64,000 nt of DNA from the NCBI GenBank assembly GCA_018056375.1, contig JAGPFQ010000001.1:360340-424339 (forward strand). The letters run 5' to 3'. Shown in pieces: positions 3,498 to 34,564 of this stretch (position 1 is the first letter of the stretch; every line of letters begins with the position of its first letter). Source of the DNA: Candidatus Dojkabacteria bacterium. Its GTDB lineage: Bacteria > Patescibacteriota > Dojkabacteria > SC72. The translations under genes were made by a program, and so were the position numbers. Under the pieces are notes generated by a model. That model worked only from the letters and a program-made list of their open reading frames with translations, did no database searches and was not told where the DNA came from.

Positions 3498-4508
3498 TTA
3501 TTTATGTGGACATGGCGGATATCCAGTAATAACTGCAATACCTATTCGCTCATTAGTATTCTGGTCTTTGACTATTATTCTTGTTCCTGGTTCATACAAA
3601 GCAGGACCTCCAAGCATTATAAACTTTCTTACCTCTATCTCAGCAACTTCTCCTGGCTTGATAGGTTTTGATATTACAGGAGTACCATTTCCTGTTATAA
3701 ATGGTTTCCCTGAAGGGTCTGCATCTTTAGGCATAAAAGTAAGAAGATAACCTTGACCATTCACAACAGATGTCTCTTTTGTATTTCCTTCTTCCTTTGT
3801 AAACACATACACCTTAAGTTTTACTTTAGTAGCCAATTGCATATCTGTACCAAAGGTTGCTCGTTTGTAGAAATAATCATTATCCATAGCAATACCAACT
3901 GACTCTGACACAGTTGCAGAATTTACCAACTTTCCTGCCTTAATCATTCTCCTTACTTTGGTTGAGACATCAGGTACTATCCCACAAATACCTGTTTGTT
4001 TAAGAGTATCTCCAACTTTAAGTGTTCCCCTTCTCACTGTTACTGTTAAATATTTTGTACCATTAATTGTAATAGTCTCTTTTGAATCTATAATTACACT
4101 CGTAGCATCAGGAGTCCATAAACTTTCAACTTGTTGTCGTGGAGGTACTATCTTTGGAGGTGGTAAGGCCTCAAATACAGGTGTCTTAGATTCTGATGAA
4201 GGAGTACTAGATGATGAGTCTTCGGAGGGTATGGATGGTGTTGTTGTTTTGCTTGATTCTGGTGTTGATTCTTCTATATCCTCTTCTACATTCTCTTCCC
4301 CCTCTAATAACCCATCTAAATCTTCTTCATCCTCCAACTCTGAAACAATCTTCTCTTCTCCTTGATCCTGCTTTATATCACTATTTCTATTCTTTCTTAC
4401 ATAGAGAAAGACAGAGAAGATAAGGATGAGAAATACTAAGAAAACAAGCAGAACTATCTGCTTTTTATCTAAAGAAAGTTTCTTTGTATTATTACTTTCT
4501 TCTTTCAT
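3498..4508 (-). CDS. Membrane-anchored protein: N-terminal TM helix, acidic/Ser-Thr-Pro-rich low-complexity linker, C-terminal beta-rich domain of unknown function
   Basis: Hydrophobic segment LVFLVFLILIFSVFLYV followed by EDEEDLDGLLEGEENVEEDIEESTPESSKTTTPSIPSEDSSSSTPSSES, then a non-repetitive globular C-terminus. Confidence 0.55.
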   Translation of the reverse strand: MKEESNNTKKLSLDKKQIVLLVFLVFLILIFSVFLYVRKNRNSDIKQDQGEEKIVSELEDEEDLDGLLEGEENVEEDIEESTPESSKTTTPSIPSEDSSSSTPSSESKTPVFEALPPPKIVPPRQQVESLWTPDATSVIIDSKETITINGTKYLTVTVRRGTLKVGDTLKQTGICGIVPDVSTKVRRMIKAGKLVNSATVSESVGIAMDNDYFYKRATFGTDMQLATKVKLKVYVFTKEEGNTKETSVVNGQGYLLTFMPKDADPSGKPFITGNGTPVISKPIKPGEVAEIEVRKFIMLGGPALYEPGTRIIVKDQNTNERIGIAVITGYPPCPHK

Positions 4509-4895
4509 ATTTATTTATGTAAAAAGTTATATATAACCTTCACTATTATTTAAGTATATCAATTTAGGGAAATACGAACAATATTAAAAGAAAGAAACCC
4601 TACTCAAACTAAACAACATACGAAATACCGTATACTGATTTTTATTGTTTTTTCGGGTTCTGTGTGTTGTGTTGTTTTACTTTTTTTGTGTTTTTTGTAT
4701 CAGTTTTTCAATGAGGAATGTTATAACATCCCTCAAAGGAAAACACAGTAACAATATCAATAGTGGCAACACTATTATAAGACACTCCATAATTCCTCCT
4801 TTCAAAAGATCATCAACACACATCTATATTATATCACAACAAACACTACAGGTCTCTTCAATAATTCTTCCCATATAAAATGATATAATCAAATA

Positions 4896-5519
4896 ATGAA
4901 AACTGATTTCAAAACTCTCAAAGATCTACATGAATACTATGCTGTAAACAATAACTGTGGATTAAAAGAAACAGCTACCCAACCAGTATATGAAATAACT
5001 CCCCCATCATCTGGAATACTCTTCATAGGTGAAGCTCCTGGTAAACATGAAGATTTACAAGGTAGACCATTTGTAGGTTCTGCTGGTAAATTCTTAGATG
5101 AACTATTACAAAGTATTGGATATACAAGAGAAGAGGTATATGTTAGTAATATTGTTAAATACAGACCTCCTTCTAACAGAGATCCACAAGATGATGAAAA
5201 GAATGCATGTAGGGTATGGCTGAATGCAGAACTAGTGTTTGTAAAACCTAAGGTAATTGTAACATTAGGAAGACATGCATTAGGTAGGTTTGTACCAGGT
5301 GCAAGTATTACAGCTTCTCATGGACAATCATTTGAACATCCAACAGGTATTCCAATATTTGCTATGTATCATCCTGCAGCTGCACTCTACAATCCTAATC
5401 TAAAAGAAGATATGAAGAAGGATTTTAAAGCATTGAAGAAATTTCTATCTACTCTTCCTAAAAAGAAAATAAATATATTAGAAAAGCAAGAGGTTATAGA
5501 TGAGATATTGAAGTTATAA
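4896..5519 (+). CDS. udg: Uracil-DNA glycosylase, family 4
   Basis: Motif A GILFIGEAPGKHEDLQGRPFVGSAGKFLDELL (GEAPG...PFVG.AG) and the C-terminal H-containing motif B region are typical of family 4 UDG. Confidence 0.85.
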   Translation: MKTDFKTLKDLHEYYAVNNNCGLKETATQPVYEITPPSSGILFIGEAPGKHEDLQGRPFVGSAGKFLDELLQSIGYTREEVYVSNIVKYRPPSNRDPQDDEKNACRVWLNAELVFVKPKVIVTLGRHALGRFVPGASITASHGQSFEHPTGIPIFAMYHPAAALYNPNLKEDMKKDFKALKKFLSTLPKKKINILEKQEVIDEILKL

Positions 5520-12621: not shown

Positions 12622-13270
12622 ATGCTCCCTCCCTACTTAACACAATTTTAGGAGTTTTAAGAAGAATCTTTAAGTCTGTAAGAAAGTTTAAGTTTCTTGC
12701 ATATGTTGCTTCCATAGCTAATCTTTCATGAAGAGAGATATCATTCCTACCAGAAACTTGCCATATACCAGTTATACCAGGACTTACTCTAAAAATATAT
12801 TTAAGATGTTGTTTATCCTTTGGGTATTGTTTCAAATGTGCCTCTATCTCCGTTTTGTATGTAGGTCTAGGACCAACAAGAGACATTTGACCAATTAAAA
12901 CATTAAGCAGTTGAGGTAATTCATCCATATCCGTTTTCCTAAGAATCTTCCCTATCCATGTAATTCTAGAATCTTCATCAACTTTTAGTTTGTTACCATT
13001 CTTTTTCCACTTCTCCTTTAATCTCCCATACTTAGGATTTTCTAACAACTCTCTGTGAGCATTAGGAATCATTGTTCTAAACTTAAACATTCTAAATTCT
13101 TTACCACCATATCCGTGTCTAAGAGGTTCTTTTACAAAAATATTCTTACCATCAGTGCAAAAGATTAATATTGAAACAAAAAGAAGTAAAGGTAAAAAGA
13201 TGATTAGAAGAGAAAGGGATAGAATTACATCCAACACTCTTTTAACTACTTTGTATGGTATCCCTGACAT
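12614..13270 (-). CDS. Polyprenyl-phosphate sugar-1-phosphate transferase (bacterial sugar transferase, small PGT type)
   Basis: KRVLDVILSLSLLIIFLPLLLFVSILIF...KEFRMFKFRTM...DELPQLLNVLIGQMSLVGPRP is the hallmark of WbaP/PglC-type transferases. Start set at Met MSGIPYK (13270); the track ORF extends to 13402, overlapping the upstream gene. Confidence 0.85.
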   Translation of the reverse strand: MSGIPYKVVKRVLDVILSLSLLIIFLPLLLFVSILIFCTDGKNIFVKEPLRHGYGGKEFRMFKFRTMIPNAHRELLENPKYGRLKEKWKKNGNKLKVDEDSRITWIGKILRKTDMDELPQLLNVLIGQMSLVGPRPTYKTEIEAHLKQYPKDKQHLKYIFRVSPGITGIWQVSGRNDISLHERLAMEATYARNLNFLTDLKILLKTPKIVLSREGAYE

Positions 13271-14426
13271 AGTTTTGTAACTTGTATACAAATATTTCCG
13301 ATGCAAAGTTTTGCGCCTGTTTTCTACAATTATCTTGTGTGTATTTTTCTGGTTTGAAGTTTTTAAGAACTTTGACAAGGGAGTCAACTGTGTACTCTTC
13401 AAAGAATACTCCTGTTGCAGGATTTTCTTCTGATATTGTTTCCATTACACCCCCATCTTTGTACGCAATGACAGGTGTACCAAAAGCATTGGCTTCAACA
13501 GGTACCAAACCAAAATCCTCACCCCTAATTGGAAGAATCAATGCTCTGGCTTTACTCATAAGGTCATATTTCTCCTCCTCTGAAACAAAACCTAGGAACT
13601 TTACAATACCTTTCGCACCTAATTTATCAACAAGTTCTTTCATAGCTTCTAAGTCCTGTCCTGCTCCAGCAATTTTAAGTGGTAGATCTAACCTATCACA
13701 AGCTTTAATTGCAAGATGTACTCCTTTGTATCTCTCAACCCGACCAAGATAGAGATACCAATTCTCCTTTCTGTTAACTTTTGGATGTTTCAAAATTTTA
13801 TCAACTTCAACAGGTGGGTATATTACATCTGAGTCACATCCATAGAATTTCTTTATTCTCTTCTTAACCACTTTTGAGTTAGCAATTATCCTGGTACATT
13901 TCCTTGCTGCATTTCTATCCCACTTTTGCCATAGCCTTTCAAGAAATGTATCCATGAAAAACGAATATATCGAGAAGAACACCTTGTTTATCCCACTCAT
14001 CTGCTCTTTACTCTTAAGAGTCCTATCATCTTTCTGCCAAAAGAATTTTGGAGGAGTTAAACAATCATCTATATGTGGAACTCCATCTGTATGTGCAAAT
14101 TTAGCAAAGTGAGATGAGAGAGAAACAATTACATCAAAATCTTTAAAGTTAAAACTTTTATATGCCAAAGGATTAAGCAGGAGATAGAGATACCTCAATT
14201 TATCCTTCCAAGGAAGGTATTGCATAAATGAGTGGTGCACTTTTACATCTTTAAATTCTTTCTTAACAAGTTCTTCATCATAATATGCAGTAAAGAGTTC
14301 TGAATTAGGAAAAGCTTCAAGAATGTACTTCAAGTGTAGTTCTGCTCCACCCCATTTGTAGAGAGGTTCACAAACTACTGCTACTTTAATATCTTTAACC
14401 CTGTCTCCTTGTCCTTTCTTTTTCAT
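13242..14426 (-). CDS. Glycosyltransferase family 4 (GT-B, retaining)
   Basis: EDFGLVPVEANAFGTPVIAYKDGGVMETI (E-x7-E GT4 motif). Confidence 0.8.
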   Translation of the reverse strand: MKKKGQGDRVKDIKVAVVCEPLYKWGGAELHLKYILEAFPNSELFTAYYDEELVKKEFKDVKVHHSFMQYLPWKDKLRYLYLLLNPLAYKSFNFKDFDVIVSLSSHFAKFAHTDGVPHIDDCLTPPKFFWQKDDRTLKSKEQMSGINKVFFSIYSFFMDTFLERLWQKWDRNAARKCTRIIANSKVVKKRIKKFYGCDSDVIYPPVEVDKILKHPKVNRKENWYLYLGRVERYKGVHLAIKACDRLDLPLKIAGAGQDLEAMKELVDKLGAKGIVKFLGFVSEEEKYDLMSKARALILPIRGEDFGLVPVEANAFGTPVIAYKDGGVMETISEENPATGVFFEEYTVDSLVKVLKNFKPEKYTQDNCRKQAQNFASEIFVYKLQNYVRDTIQSS

Positions 14427-15576
14427 AGATTTCTGTAAGATAGTTAGTAAAATTAATTAAGAAACTCTCTTCATTAAAAGTCTGCGCATGCTCTATAATC
14501 TCTTTCTCATTATACCCCCTTTTATTATAATTCTTAAGTAACTGTACCAATTCTTCTTCGTTCATGAAAAACTCCCCAGTCACACCCTTCTTTACAGTCT
14601 CCAATACACCACCATATCCGTACGCAAATATTGGTGTCCCACTCGCCATCGCTTCAACTGGTACTAAACCAAAATCTTCAATCCCACAAAAGAGCAAAAC
14701 CTTAGCCATACTATACAATGCTTGAACTTCTTCATCCTTAATGAATCCTAAAAACTGTATATTTTTATACCCTCTTGCAACTTTTTCTAAATATCTTCTA
14801 TCAGGACCCTCCCCTACAATTACTAAATTATCTCCACTTTCAATACATGATCGTATTGCCCAATCCACTCTCTTGTAGTCATATAGCCTTGAAACAACTA
14901 AAACAAAATCTTCAGGAATGAAAAATTTCTCCTTGGTATCTTTAATAAATCTTTCACCTTCCTTCGTTTCTTTTAATTGTTTAAAATATTTCTCTTCTAC
15001 ACCTGGATATATTACTCGTGCATCTACTCCATATGTCTTCTTTATCTTCTGTGCAATGAATTTTGAATTTGCACTCCAATAGTCAACTCTTTTAGCAATA
15101 CTAACATCCCAAACTCTAAGGTATGTGTTAAGAATATGGGAGAGAGGCTTGTAAAGCCATTTTAGTGTAGATCCCCTTACATTCAATTCATTATCCCAAA
15201 GACTTCTAGGTGGTGTCATAACCATAGCTAGGTGTGGTTGGTCTACTCCTGTAATCACTGACTTGGCTGGACCTGCTGATATACTAATTACTAAATCATA
15301 TCCCCTTAAATCGAATCCTTCATATGCAAAAGGATTTAATACTTTAAGATGTCTATGGAATTTCTTCCCAAACACCTTAACCCACTTTTGTACAAATGAT
15401 GTATATACTTTGTTTTTCAGAGTTGGATATTTCTCTTTGTAGAAAAGAACTGTATATATATCTGCATCTGGGAATACTTTCAACATTGAATACATCTCCC
15501 TATCTGCACCACCAAAGGATGTCATCTGGTCTGCTACAACTGCTACCTTGGGAAATTTGTTGTGTAGATTATACAT
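14395..15576 (-). CDS. Glycosyltransferase family 4 (paralogue of the previous gene)
   Basis: EDFGLVPVEAMASGTPIFAYGYGGVLETV; similar overall layout to the neighbouring gene. Confidence 0.8.
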   Translation of the reverse strand: MYNLHNKFPKVAVVADQMTSFGGADREMYSMLKVFPDADIYTVLFYKEKYPTLKNKVYTSFVQKWVKVFGKKFHRHLKVLNPFAYEGFDLRGYDLVISISAGPAKSVITGVDQPHLAMVMTPPRSLWDNELNVRGSTLKWLYKPLSHILNTYLRVWDVSIAKRVDYWSANSKFIAQKIKKTYGVDARVIYPGVEEKYFKQLKETKEGERFIKDTKEKFFIPEDFVLVVSRLYDYKRVDWAIRSCIESGDNLVIVGEGPDRRYLEKVARGYKNIQFLGFIKDEEVQALYSMAKVLLFCGIEDFGLVPVEAMASGTPIFAYGYGGVLETVKKGVTGEFFMNEEELVQLLKNYNKRGYNEKEIIEHAQTFNEESFLINFTNYLTEIYEKERTRRQG

Positions 15577-15940: not shown

Positions 15941-16492
15941 CTAGATAATGGAATCGATATATTCCTGAACTTGTTTCTTTAACTCTTCAAAAGTTCCATT
16001 GTTTAAAACAAAATGGTCTGCAATTGCGATAGGACCTGCTGTCTCGGTATTCTCAATCTGGGAATAATCCCTACTTGTAACTTCCTCATCTGTCAAAGGT
16101 CTGTGTGGTCTGTTTTTTAATCTCTCAGCTCTCAAGTCTCGATCTGTTACAACTGCTAGTAGTTTGAAACTATCTTTGTATATCTCCTTAAGGTATTTAT
16201 ACTCACTCCATGAGTAGAGGCTCTCAACTACAACATTCTTACCTTCCTCATATGCCTTCTTTATCTTAGGTTCACTCTTTTTAGCATATATCGCCATATC
16301 ATTTGTTGATCTCAATTCTTCTCTTATTACTCTCTCATTCTCTTCAGTAATCTCCATATTTCTCTTCTTCAGTTCATCAAAAGTAACATCTCCGAAGTAT
16401 ACCTTTTCAAATTTGTTCTCAACAAACATATTCGTAACTTCTGATTTACCAGCACCACAAAGACCTACTACTGCTACTATTATATTTTTCAT
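15941..16492 (-). CDS. P-loop nucleotide/nucleoside kinase-like protein (dephospho-CoA-kinase/UPF0200-like fold)
   Basis: Walker A VAVVGLCGAGKSEV at the N-terminus; ~183 aa, kinase-like size. Confidence 0.55.
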   Translation of the reverse strand: MKNIIVAVVGLCGAGKSEVTNMFVENKFEKVYFGDVTFDELKKRNMEITEENERVIREELRSTNDMAIYAKKSEPKIKKAYEEGKNVVVESLYSWSEYKYLKEIYKDSFKLLAVVTDRDLRAERLKNRPHRPLTDEEVTSRDYSQIENTETAGPIAIADHFVLNNGTFEELKKQVQEYIDSII

Positions 16493-16532
16493 ACTTATTA
16501 GAAATTAGTTTAGATATTAATTATTATAACAC

Positions 16533-16702
16533 GGTTCCCTTATCAATTTTAACTGTCTAGGAGAGGACTATATGTGTTTTTGAGACAATATTTAACTTAC
16601 TAGAAGACATGCAACTTTCCTTCTACAACTTATAGCATATTAACTAATCGTAACAAAACACATATAGTCTTTGGTATATAAAGGAAAATTGATAAGGGAA
16701 CC
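16533..16702. repeat. ~170-nt imperfect long inverted repeat / candidate structured RNA or MITE-like element: 18-bp perfect stem (16533-16550 / 16685-16702), 15x15-nt internal bubble, second 15-bp perfect stem (16566-16580 / 16655-16669), 74-nt apical region with its own small hairpin (TAGAAG 16601-16606 / CTTCTA 16620-16625)
   Basis: GGTTCCCTTATCAATTTT...GACTATATGTGTTTT...AAAACACATATAGTC...AAAATTGATAAGGGAACC read directly; the arms are exact reverse complements. Confidence 0.6.
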
Positions 16703-16728
16703 TGAACTGAAATAAATTAAAGTTCAGG
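16701..16728 (-). terminator. Hairpin CCTGAACT-N12-AGTTCAGG overlapping the stop codon of the 16717-17244 gene; possible intrinsic terminator
   Basis: 8-bp perfect stem. On the minus strand it is followed by a moderately U-rich tract (ttcccttatcaatttt); however that sequence is itself one arm of the large inverted repeat. Confidence 0.3.
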
Positions 16729-17244
16729 TATTTCACCATCTTCAAATCCAAAATCCTCAGCTGTTACATTCTCTTCTTCTGCATCCAACTGTTCCAAAGC
16801 TTTAGCTAAATCATCATCCAAAGAAGCATCTTCTACATGTTGAGTAGAATCTCCTCCTTCATCGGGGAAAATAACATCAAGGGATGCATCTTCTGTACTA
16901 TCAAAGGGATCTATACCATCATCAAGAGTATCATCATCAACACCAAGAAGAATGATGTTTGGCTCCTCCTTATCCATCTCAAGATCTTCATCTTCCTCTG
17001 TCATGGATACACTCTCACCATCCTCACCTTTTTTCTTTCTCTTTTCTAACCTCTCAAGAAATCTATCTGCTTCTTCACCAAATTTCTCAACTACATCAAT
17101 CACTCTCATTGGTTCATTACATTTAGGACAAAGCTTGATACTATCCATCTCATGACTACAGTGAGGACATGATAGATATACAACATGAACACTTCTTCGT
17201 ACAGGAATTAATTCATCTTTTTTTGTTTTCTTAGGTGTTGCCAT
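16717..17244 (-). CDS. Zinc-ribbon protein with an extremely acidic C-terminal tail (~110 aa D/E-rich)
   Basis: N-terminal CPHC...CPKC; then EDGESVSMTEEDEDLEMDKEE...DDDTLDDGIDPFDSTEDASLD...DDDLAKALEQLDAEEENVTAEDFGFEDGEIPEL. Confidence 0.6.
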   Translation of the reverse strand: MATPKKTKKDELIPVRRSVHVVYLSCPHCSHEMDSIKLCPKCNEPMRVIDVVEKFGEEADRFLERLEKRKKKGEDGESVSMTEEDEDLEMDKEEPNIILLGVDDDTLDDGIDPFDSTEDASLDVIFPDEGGDSTQHVEDASLDDDLAKALEQLDAEEENVTAEDFGFEDGEIPEL

Positions 17245-17466
17245 ATTGTATATTTAGAATAGTATAGGGTGTATAGTGTGTCAAGAAACTCATAGTGTAA
17301 GTTTTTACTATTATTTTAAAGAAAAAACACTCTCTACCTTTCCCTTACTATTACAAGGATTTTTAGTAAAATGGATAATTTAAGGTAAATGGTTGAAAAC
17401 TATAGTTTGGGATTATTTGGAAATTTTTGTTTTTTTATATTGTAACTTGTTTAAGAACAGGGTATA

Positions 17467-31657: not shown

Positions 31658-34564
31658 TTATTTAAAGTTTAATATCCCCATATCACTATGACCATAGTCA
31701 TACATGGTTGCAACCTCTTCAATTCCATTACCATTATAATCACCAGAAGTCACAAATCTTGTATTGGGTACAGACCATAAATATCTACCACTCCTGAACC
31801 AACTAGAGAGATTAAAGATGTTAGAATTAGACTTAAATACCAACATACCCATATCGCTATTACCATAATCATATACAGCTCCTATCTCTGCTTTTCCATC
31901 TCCATCATAATCCCCAGAGGTTACAAACCTTGTATTGGGTACAGACCATAAGTATCTACCACTCCTAAACCAAGTGGAAAGATTAAAGGTATTTAGATTA
32001 GATTGAAAGACTAATATCCCCATATCACTATGGCCATAATCATAAACGGCTCCTATCTCTGCTTTTCCATCTCCATTATAATCTCCAGAAGTTACAAATC
32101 TTGTACTGGGTACAGACCATAAATACCTACCACTCCTGAACCAACTAGAAAGATTAAAGGTGTTTAAATTAGATTTAAACACTAATATTCCCATATCGCT
32201 GTTACCATAATCATAAACAGCTGCTATCTCCGCATTCCCATCTCCATCATAGTCTCCAGAAGTCACAAACCTAGTATTTGGTACGGACCATAAATTCTTA
32301 CCACTCCTAAACCAAGTGAAGAGATCAAAGGAATAGGCATCAGACATAGACTTAAACACTAATATTCCCATATCGCTATTACCATAATCATATATTGCAG
32401 CTATCTCTGCTTTTCCATCTCCATCATAATCTCCAGAGGTCACAAACCTTGTCCTAGGAACCGACCACATATTTCGACCACTGCGAAACCATATAGAAAG
32501 ATCAAAGCTAGTCCCATTAGGTTTGAATACTAATACCCCCATATCATTATTTCCATAATCATATATTGCAGCTATTTCTGTTTTTCCATCTCCATCATAA
32601 TCTCCAGAGGTCAGGAACTTAGTGTTGGGAACAGACCATAAATATCTACCACTACGATACATCGAAGAAACTTCAAAGTAGTTTAAAATCTCTACAGTGT
32701 ATAATTCCTGAGCACCTCCAGATTTAGTAAATGTATATGTTGTGTTTTCAAAGAAGTTGTTGGAATCACCAGATGCTGGAGATATGGAGCCACCTGTTAA
32801 AGTAATCGTTGGTGCTAAATTTGTCTTAGGAATATCAGCAGGCATAGAACACTTTATTGTCTTTGTTCTTTCGCTCACAATACATGGGAATTCTATCCCT
32901 TCATAAGTAATCTTAAAAGATTCTATTATATCTCCCTGTACAGAAACTAAAGCATTGTATGCATTAACTCTTCTACCCGTAACAGTTTTTCCTGATAAAC
33001 TTGGTGCTAAATCTCCTGTGGTTAATATGGCATTCTTAGCCTCAGCAATAGTAAGGGTTGGTCTGTAAGAAAGTAGTAATGCTACAACCCCAGAGACATG
33101 TGGAGCGGCCATTGATGTCCCTTCCATATGAGCATAAGTCTGTTCCTTCTTATACAACCTAAGATTTGTAACTCCACACCCCCAATAATCATTGTCATAT
33201 CCATCTGTTTGCCAAGATAGAGCAAATTTAAACCTGTCAGTCAACATTGTAGAAGACAAATCAAACACTGCATCAGGAAGATATACTGAATGTGAATATA
33301 TTGGTACTCTAAAAGAACGAGGATTCTCATCTAAAACCCGCTCATCCCACCAAGCACCACCATGCCAAGTAAAGCCATTATCCCCACTAAAAGTAATACT
33401 CATCCTATCTGGTCCTAAAGTTGAAATTGGTGTGTCACACAACCAATCCATTTTTATTCTACCAGCATTACTACCAGATAAATTATAAGTTGGAGAAATT
33501 AAGTGAGTAAAAGAATTTGCCCCATAAGGTTTTCGTACATCACCATAGAGGAAATACATATATGGATTGTTATCTTCATCTGTGATAAATCTACTCCCCC
33601 AATAATTGAAATCCCCCAATCTTGCCCATCCTACAGGAATCCCCATATTAGGCACTTCCGCGAAATCCTCCTCTATAAGAGTCTTGTATGTTACAGTACT
33701 TAAAATATTCTGTCCAGGAGCTCCAACATCAACAGATACAACACCATAGTCAGAAAAGTCAACTAAATTATCATGTTGATTAGTAGCAGCTACACATATT
33801 ATATTATCTAAAGTATAGTCACAAGGATAGCTATGGTTTGTTGTTCCATCATCGTGATTCTTTGCACTATTACCAGCTGCAGCAATAAATAAACCAGAAA
33901 AATCATTTATAGCCTGTTTAAGAAACATATCTTCTTCTGAACCACCCCAGCTAGCATTTATAATATGAGCACCATTTTCTTCAGCAAAGTAAATCGCTAT
34001 AACTGAAGCAAAAGTATTGTAGTTTGTCTTCAAGGCCATAATTTTTGCATCTGGTGCAACACCTACAAGCCCTTTACGATTGTTTTCAGTTGCTGCTATC
34101 GTACCAGCAATATGAGTACCATGTGTATCCTCATAATCATTAGGATAAGGATTTTTGTCATTGGATTCATAATCATATCCGTGCAAACAGTCACCTAAGA
34201 AATCACCATCATGATTAACACAATTCGAACCATCCCACATACTGTTAATCAAATCTGGATGATTATATGCAACACCATCATCAATAACAGCAACAATAAC
34301 ACCCTCCCCTCCACTTCTAAGCCAAGCTTCTGGAGCATCGATATCTTTGTCAACTGTACCATACACCCCATTAACTCGCTGCCCAGTATTGTGCAAGCCC
34401 CACAACTCATTTCGATAAGGGTCATTTGTAGATATTGTATTTGGATAATAAATGAAGTTAGGTTGTACATATTCAACAGTTGGATTCTTACTTAATTCTG
34501 CCATTTTTTCATTAACAGATTTTCCATCAGTAATACTCACTAAAGAAGCATTTGCTTTTAACAT
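31658..34564 (-). CDS. Subtilisin-like (S8) serine peptidase with six C-terminal FG-GAP/integrin-alpha-like calcium-binding repeats; N-terminal signal/propeptide is separated by a frameshift (see 34639-34980)
   Basis: Catalytic triad contexts VIDDGVAYNHPDL (D), HGTHIAGTIAA (H), GTSMAAPHVSGVVALL (S); 6x ~50-aa repeats FRSGRYLWSVPNTRFVTSGDYDGDGKAEIAAVYDYGNSDMGILVFKS. Confidence 0.85.
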   Translation of the reverse strand: MLKANASLVSITDGKSVNEKMAELSKNPTVEYVQPNFIYYPNTISTNDPYRNELWGLHNTGQRVNGVYGTVDKDIDAPEAWLRSGGEGVIVAVIDDGVAYNHPDLINSMWDGSNCVNHDGDFLGDCLHGYDYESNDKNPYPNDYEDTHGTHIAGTIAATENNRKGLVGVAPDAKIMALKTNYNTFASVIAIYFAEENGAHIINASWGGSEEDMFLKQAINDFSGLFIAAAGNSAKNHDDGTTNHSYPCDYTLDNIICVAATNQHDNLVDFSDYGVVSVDVGAPGQNILSTVTYKTLIEEDFAEVPNMGIPVGWARLGDFNYWGSRFITDEDNNPYMYFLYGDVRKPYGANSFTHLISPTYNLSGSNAGRIKMDWLCDTPISTLGPDRMSITFSGDNGFTWHGGAWWDERVLDENPRSFRVPIYSHSVYLPDAVFDLSSTMLTDRFKFALSWQTDGYDNDYWGCGVTNLRLYKKEQTYAHMEGTSMAAPHVSGVVALLLSYRPTLTIAEAKNAILTTGDLAPSLSGKTVTGRRVNAYNALVSVQGDIIESFKITYEGIEFPCIVSERTKTIKCSMPADIPKTNLAPTITLTGGSISPASGDSNNFFENTTYTFTKSGGAQELYTVEILNYFEVSSMYRSGRYLWSVPNTKFLTSGDYDGDGKTEIAAIYDYGNNDMGVLVFKPNGTSFDLSIWFRSGRNMWSVPRTRFVTSGDYDGDGKAEIAAIYDYGNSDMGILVFKSMSDAYSFDLFTWFRSGKNLWSVPNTRFVTSGDYDGDGNAEIAAVYDYGNSDMGILVFKSNLNTFNLSSWFRSGRYLWSVPSTRFVTSGDYNGDGKAEIGAVYDYGHSDMGILVFQSNLNTFNLSTWFRSGRYLWSVPNTRFVTSGDYDGDGKAEIGAVYDYGNSDMGMLVFKSNSNIFNLSSWFRSGRYLWSVPNTRFVTSGDYNGNGIEEVATMYDYGHSDMGILNFK
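31661..32580. repeat. Six tandem ~150-bp coding repeats (period ~144-150 nt) at the 3' end of the S8 peptidase gene
   Basis: Repeated DNA blocks (...ccatatcgctattaccataatcatatac...ggtacagaccataaatatctaccactcctgaaccaa...) visible directly in the sequence. Confidence 0.8.

Follow-up and report, generated by a model that had tools for sequence, protein, structure and literature searches.

A palindromic, non-coding element of 170 nt separates a zinc-ribbon gene from a nucleotide-kinase-like gene in the window, i.e., the whole 64-kb stretch of DNA that was analysed. The hairpin structure of this element is real and far from chance. Comparison with related lineages has shown that approx. 200 bp were inserted into the short spacer between the two genes and that a diverged homologue of the element occupies a different slot in a related lineage. 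The explanation that we favour, albeit tentatively, is a palindromic intergenic element of low copy number that is mobile or used to be; it probably provides a 3'-end hairpin that sits between transcription units, and it directly adjoins the promoter of the kinase gene.

Architecture and genomic setting of the element

The element lies in a gap of 224 bp (16493-16716) between two minus-strand ORFs, as the initial annotation had stated, and its parts are listed in Table 1. The fold described in that annotation was also recovered: the outer arms are 18 nt long and 100% complementary, the inner stem consists of 15 perfectly paired positions, the two strands of the symmetric internal loop remain unpaired over 15 nt each, and the apical region of 74 nt makes an imperfect hairpin. 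The inner arms are the ends of a 41-nt repeat that is 71% complementary overall, and they are fully paired in the folds of both strands. The whole can thus be described as an 18-bp stem, a 15x15 bubble, and an apical hairpin of approx. 45 bp.

Table 1. Features of the palindromic element and its flanks in the window (the minus strand is the sense strand of the flanking genes)
Feature	Position	Strand	Remark
Upstream gene, 175-aa zinc-ribbon protein with acidic tail	16717-17244	-	element in its 3' flank
Downstream gene, 183-aa AAA_18 nucleotide-kinase-like protein	15941-16492	-	
Complete palindromic element, 170 nt	16533-16702	-	orientation of the flanking genes; better-folding strand
Outer stem, 5' arm GGTTCCCTTATCAATTTT	16685-16702	-	18 bp, perfect with 16533-16550
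15x15 loop, 5' strand CCTTTATATACCAAA	16670-16684	-	unpaired in folds; also 15 nt in L041 and L129
Inner 15-bp stem, 5' half GACTATATGTGTTTT	16655-16669	-	perfect in the window
Apical imperfect hairpin, 74 nt	16581-16654	-	contains the two core blocks
Core block GTTACGATTAGTTAAT	16639-16654	-	nearly invariant
Core block TCTAGTAAGTTAAA	16591-16604	-	nearly invariant
Inner stem, 3' half AAAACACATATAGTC	16566-16580	-	pairs with 16655-16669
15x15 loop, 3' strand CTCTCCTAGACAGTT	16551-16565	-	unpaired; also 15 nt in L041 and L129
Outer stem, 3' arm AAAATTGATAAGGGAACC	16533-16550	-	0 variable sites among the window, L012 and L106
Promoter-like site of the kinase gene	16523-16552	-	TTAAAA, 18-nt spacer, TGT-TATAAT
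Small hairpin ACCTGAACT / AGTTCAGGT	16700-16729	-	covers the zinc-ribbon stop codon and the first 3 nt of the element

Folding of both strands, which had been proposed as a check, gives a minimum free energy of -51.1 kcal/mol for the plus strand (z = -7.84) and -56.8 kcal/mol for the minus strand (z = -8.47); the gene-sense strand therefore folds better. None of 200 dinucleotide shuffles matches the native fold on either strand, which bears out the earlier view that the structure exceeds chance. Moreover, the 64-kb window contains no other local inverted repeat comparable to the element. The covariance model R1, which was used in the search for homologues described below, assigns the window element 201 bits on the minus strand and 82 bits on the plus strand.

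The window derives from a bacterium of Candidatus Dojkabacteria, within the candidate phyla radiation; a 99%-identical homologue of its kinase is likewise assigned to Candidatus Dojkabacteria by NCBI. The kinase gene is followed by an RNHCP gene, two group-1 glycosyltransferase genes, a bacterial sugar-transferase gene, and recO, while the zinc-ribbon gene is preceded by an HD-domain gene, LiaF-like and DUF4097 genes, and secA. The stretch from 7.7 to 27 kb of the window contains no gene for a transposase, recombinase, or reverse transcriptase. Gene content and gene order of this region differ in every lineage examined, and the region is a rearrangement hot spot. The adjacent gap of 222 nt (17245-17466) is without structure (z = +1.3).

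Insertion, second site and sequence constraint

Homologues were sought by blastn of the element against all fetched loci and then with R1. The loci of relatives were all retrieved via homologues of the kinase protein, and the closeness of the element to the kinase gene is thus partly a sampling effect. The kinase is 86% identical to that of the window in loci L039/L040 and 84% identical in L041/L042/L129, and the zinc-ribbon orthologues are 69% (L039) and 66% (L041) identical over their full length. In these two related lineages, only 17-22 nt separate the zinc-ribbon stop codon from the kinase start codon, compared with 224 nt in the window, which indicates that approx. 200 bp were inserted in the latter. 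Both edges of the spacer are still recognizable: the C-terminal codons of the zinc-ribbon gene (..GEIPEL and the stop codon) align between the window and its relatives, and so do the 25 nt ahead of the kinase ATG between the window and L041.

At the site in the window, eight contigs from different samples, all encoding the identical kinase, carry the element without a single difference (100% identity). Diverged variants at the same site are found in L012, which derives from a GTDB representative genome (93.5% identity), and in L106/L107/L108 (94.7% identity). The homologue at the second site is 157 nt long in L041 (3059-3215), where it directly follows the kinase stop codon; it is also present in L129 (863-1018), starting 15 nt past the kinase stop codon, and in L042, where it is cut by the contig end. 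This homologue scores approx. 160 bits with R1. The element is thus located upstream of the kinase gene in the window lineage and downstream of it in the L041 lineage, in the same orientation relative to the genes. In all 16 element-bearing contigs, R1 favours the gene-sense strand (160 versus 66 bits in L041).

The distribution among kinase-bearing lineages is patchy. In seven of them (L038, L101/L102, L105, L146, L099/L100, L103/L104, and L043), R1 (E<=10 or less) detects no element within 2.5-10 kb of the kinase gene. A possible remnant, the 77-nt spacer of L101, was rejected, as its score does not rise above that of shuffled sequence.

At both sites, the element fills the slot from a stop codon to the TGTTATAAT -10 of the next gene. 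In L041, where the next gene encodes a glycosyltransferase, the homologue ends 16 nt upstream of this motif. In the window, TTAAAA lies at the junction of bubble and arm, the 3' arm constitutes the 18-nt spacer, and the extended -10 starts 1 nt outside the element. This promoter-like site of the kinase gene matches 10/12 positions and carries the TG motif, which places it among the best in the 20 kb scanned; promoter-like matches in general are no commoner there than in shuffled sequence, given the AT-rich genome. In the element-less locus L146, a collinear TGTGATATAAT..ATCTAAAC is found upstream of the kinase gene; therefore, this -10 probably belonged to the kinase gene from the outset, and the -35 region was probably replaced by the element. 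A -10-like TATAAA in the plus-strand bubble was rejected as a candidate because it is not conserved in L041. At neither site is the hairpin followed by a U-tract (3' flank: GUGUUAUAAU in the window, CCCCUCUCUUUC in L041), so the element is not a canonical intrinsic terminator. In the 20 kb scanned, canonical terminators occur no more often than they do in shuffled sequence. In L038 and L101, a GC-rich hairpin with a T-rich tail lies downstream of the kinase gene, i.e., in the slot that holds the element in L041.

The pairing scheme has been retained despite sequence divergence. In L041 and L129, the outer stem stays perfect over 18 bp owing to three compensatory double changes (C-G to A-U, A-U to G-C, and U-A to C-G). 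RNAalifold, applied to five sequences, finds 7 of 53 pairs retained after two-sided changes, three of them in the outer stem. In a four-sequence alignment, six pairs show two-sided changes, compared with 0-1 in controls in which the partners were slid, and 94% of the cells are paired, compared with 36-50% in such controls; the observed covariation is reached by 4 of 500 shuffles. These statistics are weak, since the sequences represent two independent clades only. The inner stem contains a 2x2 mismatch in L012 and L106, and L041 and L129 carry a deletion of 15-16 nt at the tip of the apical hairpin. The gene-sense strand has three invariant G.U pairs and no invariant A.C, and it folds 3-8 kcal/mol better in all four variants (the window, L012, L106, and L041).

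The bubble measures exactly 15x15 in both lineages. Its strands are pyrimidine-rich and share 9/15 (5' strand) and 10/15 (3' strand) bases with L041. The core blocks GTTACGATTAGTTAAT.TGCTAT and TCTAGTAAGTTAAA are nearly unchanged between the lineages, with 26 of 27 bases (96%) the same in L041. The conserved size of the bubble and the invariant core suggest that a factor binds the element, putatively a protein responsible for its movement or processing.

Among the window, L012, and L106, variable sites number 1/36 in the arms, 0/40 in the right flank, and 14/170 in the whole element, and the 68 nt that extend from the 3' bubble strand to the kinase ATG are invariant in the three diverged same-site variants. 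By comparison, 22/176 and 42/184 third-codon sites of the flanking genes vary among the same three sequences. The element is thus under constraint, which is strongest on the arms and the right flank. Purifying selection and compensatory changes in a single-copy element fit a host-functional RNA equally well. The longest small ORF inside the element has 17 codons and is not conserved in L041. Another small ORF, MCF* on the plus strand behind AGGAGAGG, was rejected because it is conserved in neither L106 nor L041.

Relation to known mobile elements and RNA families

A MITE had been put forward as one possible identity of the element, and this proposal stands in part. The inverted repeats (18 bp, perfect in the window and also in L041 and L129), the small size, the lack of coding capacity, the insertion polymorphism, and the second site agree with it; a target-site duplication is missing, and the element is present as a single copy in the window. 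In particular, with three mismatches allowed, the 18-bp arm has no extra copies elsewhere in the 64-kb window, and direct repeats of any length flank neither insertion site (boundaries TTCAGTTCA|...|GTGTTATAA in the window and ACAACTAA|...|CCCTCTCT in L041). The similarity between TAATTTAT and TAATTAAT in the flanks was considered as a target-site duplication and rejected, as it is estimated to be at chance level in AT-rich DNA. Scans of the window with the arm, the inner stem, and the core at 2-3 mismatches return the element only, or matches at chance level, and no second copy was detected in approx. 170 kb of related Dojkabacteria loci.

In broader collections, the exact 18-mer arm occurs at 29 loci when one genome is taken for each of 185,579 species and at 55 loci in the JGI metagenome collection; in neither set are any of these loci paired. 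The source genome of L012, the GTDB representative, has one such locus. Similarity beyond the arm among the genome and metagenome loci is confined to L012, i.e., the same locus in a sister genome, and the rest are chance-like. L012 is also the only Dojkabacteria locus among the genome matches. In another Patescibacteria contig, L025, the arm match lies within an ORF of 831 aa. Viral contigs searched with the core 16-mer and a degenerate arm yield chance matches only, and the covariance model finds nothing at the viral loci that carry the core 16-mer. No match was obtained by blastn against phage and plasmid collections. A cognate insertion sequence with matching ends was not found in the window at three mismatches, and the arm scans return only single chance matches. 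If the genome of L012 held five extra copies diverged by approx. 6%, the chance that none of them kept an exact arm is estimated at approx. 2%, a figure that depends on the completeness of the assembly. The copy number of bacterial MITEs may be as low as one per genome (PMC10969869). An integron attC site, a Xer/dif site, an IS110 bridge RNA, a retron RNA, and a plasmid single-strand origin were also considered and rejected, given that their sequence features or partner genes are missing.

The element shares traits with several groups of palindromic repeats. Correia elements consist of inverted repeats around a conserved core, create promoters at their ends, and serve as RNase III substrates (PMC2649163); RNase III either cleaves or protects the hairpins that arise when these repeats (CREE) are transcribed (PMC2649163, PMC2229807). 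Similarly to CREE of Neisseria, which are approx. 100-160 bp long and non-coding with terminal inverted repeats around a conserved core, the element is intergenic and varies in presence between strains, and its 3' arm in the window is located directly upstream of an extended -10. CREE are numerous in each genome, and their insertion duplicates a TA target. In contrast, the element was found as a single copy, without duplication and without sequence similarity to CREE, and it is hairpin-like throughout, with a conserved symmetric 15x15 bubble; CREE are not known to have such a bubble.

ERIC sequences and Rickettsia palindromic elements resemble the element in being full-length imperfect palindromes with an orientation-dependent position in transcription units and a patchy distribution, and the Rickettsia elements are likewise found in reduced genomes. 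They reach tens to hundreds of copies, however, and no such repetition is seen for the element, which belongs to another phylum, has no sequence relationship to them, and possesses unusual perfect helices of 18 and 15 bp. The copy number of ERIC varies widely (PMC10969869). Perfect terminal inverted repeats, a small size, the absence of an ORF, and insertion polymorphism are also characteristic of DDE-derived MITEs, from which the element differs in that neither a target-site duplication nor a cognate insertion sequence was found and that conservation extends past the terminal repeats into its inner stem, bubble, and core. The arm, GGTTC..TT..CAA.TT, resembles the ends of the IS6 family, e.g., that of IS257. 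REPINs, in which selection maintains the hairpin (PMC3116915), are also symmetric, hairpin-forming, and extragenic and lack a target-site duplication; however, they are shorter (approx. 70-110 nt), numerous, and associated with a RAYT gene, and the element has none of these traits. The element is tentatively placed as a lineage-restricted, non-coding unit in the style of MITEs, Correia repeats, ERIC, and Rickettsia palindromic elements, which these small Dojkabacteria genomes would now maintain at low copy number.

The initial annotation had also likened the element to 6S RNA, and this assignment is not supported. The 6S RNA model RF00013 is absent even at E<=10 from searches with the element alone, in both the window and L041, and the Rfam covariance check yields neither 6S RNA nor any other bacterial small RNA at the element. 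At gathering thresholds, the whole window contains one Rfam match, a tRNA elsewhere, and nothing at the element; ARAGORN reports two tRNAs, also elsewhere in the window. At E<=10, the surrounding region gives sub-threshold noise only, and the element alone (window and L041) gives just generic long-hairpin models, namely plant miRNA precursors. The likeness to 6S RNA is one of geometry: a length of approx. 170-180 nt and a large central bubble set between a closing stem and an apical stem. The closing stems of characterised 6S RNAs are long and interrupted, whereas that of the element is short and perfect. Moreover, the element differs from 6S RNA in that it has no covariance-model match and is not syntenically conserved; conservation of the housekeeping type was not observed, as the element is missing at the syntenic site in L039/L040 and L041. 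Of the 6S RNA traits compared, the element thus shares the stem-bubble-stem architecture, but neither the covariance match nor the conservation among related genomes. A literature search on 6S RNA of the candidate phyla radiation and on MITEs of Patescibacteria returned nothing relevant.

Proposed role and alternative explanations

Under the favoured explanation, the element would be transcribed in the sense direction as the 3' untranslated end of the upstream zinc-ribbon mRNA and would fold there into a hairpin of approx. -56 kcal/mol. Such a hairpin may define or protect the 3' end of the message or may provide an RNase III site, and in either case it would separate two transcription units. 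At the other end of the element, the 3' arm would have taken over the -35 region of the extended -10 promoter of the kinase gene (TTAAAA - 18 nt - TGTTATAAT).

A free-standing gene for a structured small RNA of a new family, e.g., a 6S-like decoy or an RNA with a partner-binding internal loop, is an unlikely alternative. In the decoy version, the 18-bp stem would mimic downstream DNA, the bubble an open complex, and the apical stem upstream DNA. The stem-bubble-stem geometry, the 15x15 bubble kept in both lineages, the compensatory changes in the outer stem, the three invariant G.U pairs together with the better sense-strand fold, the constraint relative to third-codon sites, and the apparent single copy all accord with such a gene. 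So do the promoter-like sequences ahead of the element, namely TTAAAA-17-TATAAT in L041, which ends 19 nt before it, and TTGAAG-18-TTTAAT just upstream of it in the window; however, promoter-like matches occur no more often than in shuffled sequence, and no terminator is present. Further points against a small RNA gene are the lack of an Rfam match to 6S or any bacterial small RNA (E<=10, 190 nt), the long and perfect helices in the window, which are unlike the interrupted stems of 6S RNA, and the distribution: the insertion is precise, is missing at the syntenic site in two lineages, and is not found near the kinase gene (2.5-10 kb searched) in seven more. That a cis-acting terminator, attenuator, or RNase III hairpin evolved within the operon and was never mobile is improbable in our view. 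Such a hairpin would account for the slot between stop codon and next promoter at both sites, for an orientation that matches the genes, and for the better fold of the sense strand, and relatives do carry an ordinary terminator-like hairpin in the equivalent slot. However, homologous sequence is found at two intergenic sites, downstream of different genes; the insertion is abrupt when set against spacers of 17-22 nt; a U-tract is missing; and no common gene would be regulated, as the element precedes the kinase gene in one lineage and follows it in the other. A combination of an RNA function with mobility is comparably improbable, i.e., an undescribed trans-acting structured RNA of the candidate phyla radiation that resides on a small mobile palindromic unit, with the 15x15 loop as its putative functional site. 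The loop could then mimic an open promoter and sequester RNA polymerase in the manner of 6S RNA, or it could be a two-stranded guide loop that pairs with nucleic acids.

Two further readings treat the element as a site of DNA rearrangement. An invertible switch (inverton), in which the 18-bp repeats flank a segment of 134 bp upstream of the glycosyltransferase/sugar-transferase cluster, is very improbable. Perfect inverted repeats do flank a segment; both sites lie upstream of the two glycosyltransferase genes and the sugar-transferase gene, directly so in L041; and the internal hexamers TTAACT/TTAAAT-17-TATAGT point outward on both strands. However, all 16 assembled contigs (16/16) carry the element on the gene-sense strand, so that no flipped copy is seen, and no invertase or recombinase is encoded nearby; moreover, an interior that is nearly a palindrome in its own right would be little changed by flipping. 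A recombination or attachment site that shuffles small genes in a cassette-like manner between secA and the glycosyltransferase cluster can scarcely be expected either. The core sites of integron attC follow the consensus RYYYAAC / GTTRRRY, which the ends of the element do not fit, and no integrase is encoded nearby. Although gene content and order vary in every lineage examined and the two lineages with the element differ in the side of the kinase gene on which it lies, most of the shuffled lineages are without it, and it occurs once per region instead of once per gene.

A low-copy palindromic insertion element in the style of Correia, ERIC, or Rickettsia repeats is thus the description to which we incline, with reserve; it would come from a phylum for which the literature searched describes no such case, and its unusual trait would be the loop of conserved size. 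Genomes of the candidate phyla radiation are tiny and repeat-poor, and the literature searched yielded nothing about non-coding elements in them. A mobile hairpin would mean that elements of this kind can rewire operon boundaries in genomes of approx. 0.75 Mb: a co-transcribed gene pair would have become two units, with the element set against a promoter. A functional RNA would constitute a new RNA family in the candidate phyla radiation. The alignment and the covariance model make the question testable on complete genomes and metatranscriptomes.

At the junction of the element with the zinc-ribbon gene, the small hairpin listed in Table 1 is particular to the strain group of the window; in L012 and L106, it is weakened by a 5-nt deletion and a substitution.

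The slot downstream of the kinase gene

Two relatives that lack the 170-nt palindromic element near the kinase gene, L038 and L101, carry instead a conserved GC-rich hairpin 3' of this gene, followed by TCCTTCAAAATTTT, which together look like a terminator. The hairpin occupies the same slot that is taken by the element in L041, one of the contigs with a homologue after the kinase stop codon. In L129, another contig of this second-site group, the element is separated from the kinase stop codon by a 15-nt insertion, missing from L041, in which the AACTAAG motif of the junction is repeated. Three independent metagenome contigs (L042, L107, and L108) break off within the element, possibly because strains vary here or because the palindrome is hard to assemble.

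Positions of the features described (window coordinates unless a contig is named)
Feature	Position	Strand	Sequence
Near-palindrome	4703-4744		GTTTTTCAATGAGGAATGTTATAACATCCCTCAAAGGAAAAC
Divergent ORFs flanking its gap	3498-4508	-	
	4896-5519	+	
Group-1 glycosyltransferase genes	13242-14426		
	14395-15576		
Hairpin at zinc-ribbon stop codon	16700-16729		ACCTGAACT / AGTTCAGGT
Gap upstream of zinc-ribbon gene	17245-17466		
171-nt tandem repeats (family D1)	31660-32649		
968-aa ORF	31658-34564	-	
GC-rich hairpin	L038:3112-3145; L101:10612-10645		CCTCACCCTTGGC..GCCCGGTGAGG, then TCCTTCAAAATTTT
15-nt insertion	L129:848-862		GAACTTAAGAACTAA
Contig ends within element	L042:3059-3117; L107:1-147; L108:1-68		

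Gene content around the kinase gene

The region from secA to the glycosyltransferase cluster, compared in L001, L038, L039, L099, L101, L105, L041, and L146, is a rearrangement hot spot: each Dojkabacteria lineage examined has its own gene order and content near the kinase gene. The genes that vary code for ClpP, NYN, RNHCP, DUF3955, and small unknown proteins. The two group-1 glycosyltransferase genes of the window overlap, and PF20706 (family 4 glycosyltransferase in conflict systems) is a further match for both; the first scores 48.8 bits, above the curated cut-off of 26.

Surroundings of the zinc-ribbon gene

A 9-bp hairpin extends across the zinc-ribbon stop codon and into the element, of which it takes in the first 3 nt. 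As a 5-nt deletion and a substitution weaken it in the sister variants L012 and L106, this hairpin is strain-specific. On the other side of the gene, the adjoining 222-nt intergenic gap was tested for structure and none was found (z = +1.3); the gap contains a good promoter-like site for the zinc-ribbon gene, TTGACA-17-TATTCT.

Other repeats in the window

A 968-aa ORF contains a 171-nt (57-codon) unit in five tandem copies that are 60-85% identical; the product of this ORF looks like a repeat-domain protein. Elsewhere, a near-palindrome of approx. 42 nt (83-85% complementary), a putative operator, is located in a 387-nt gap flanked by divergent ORFs.
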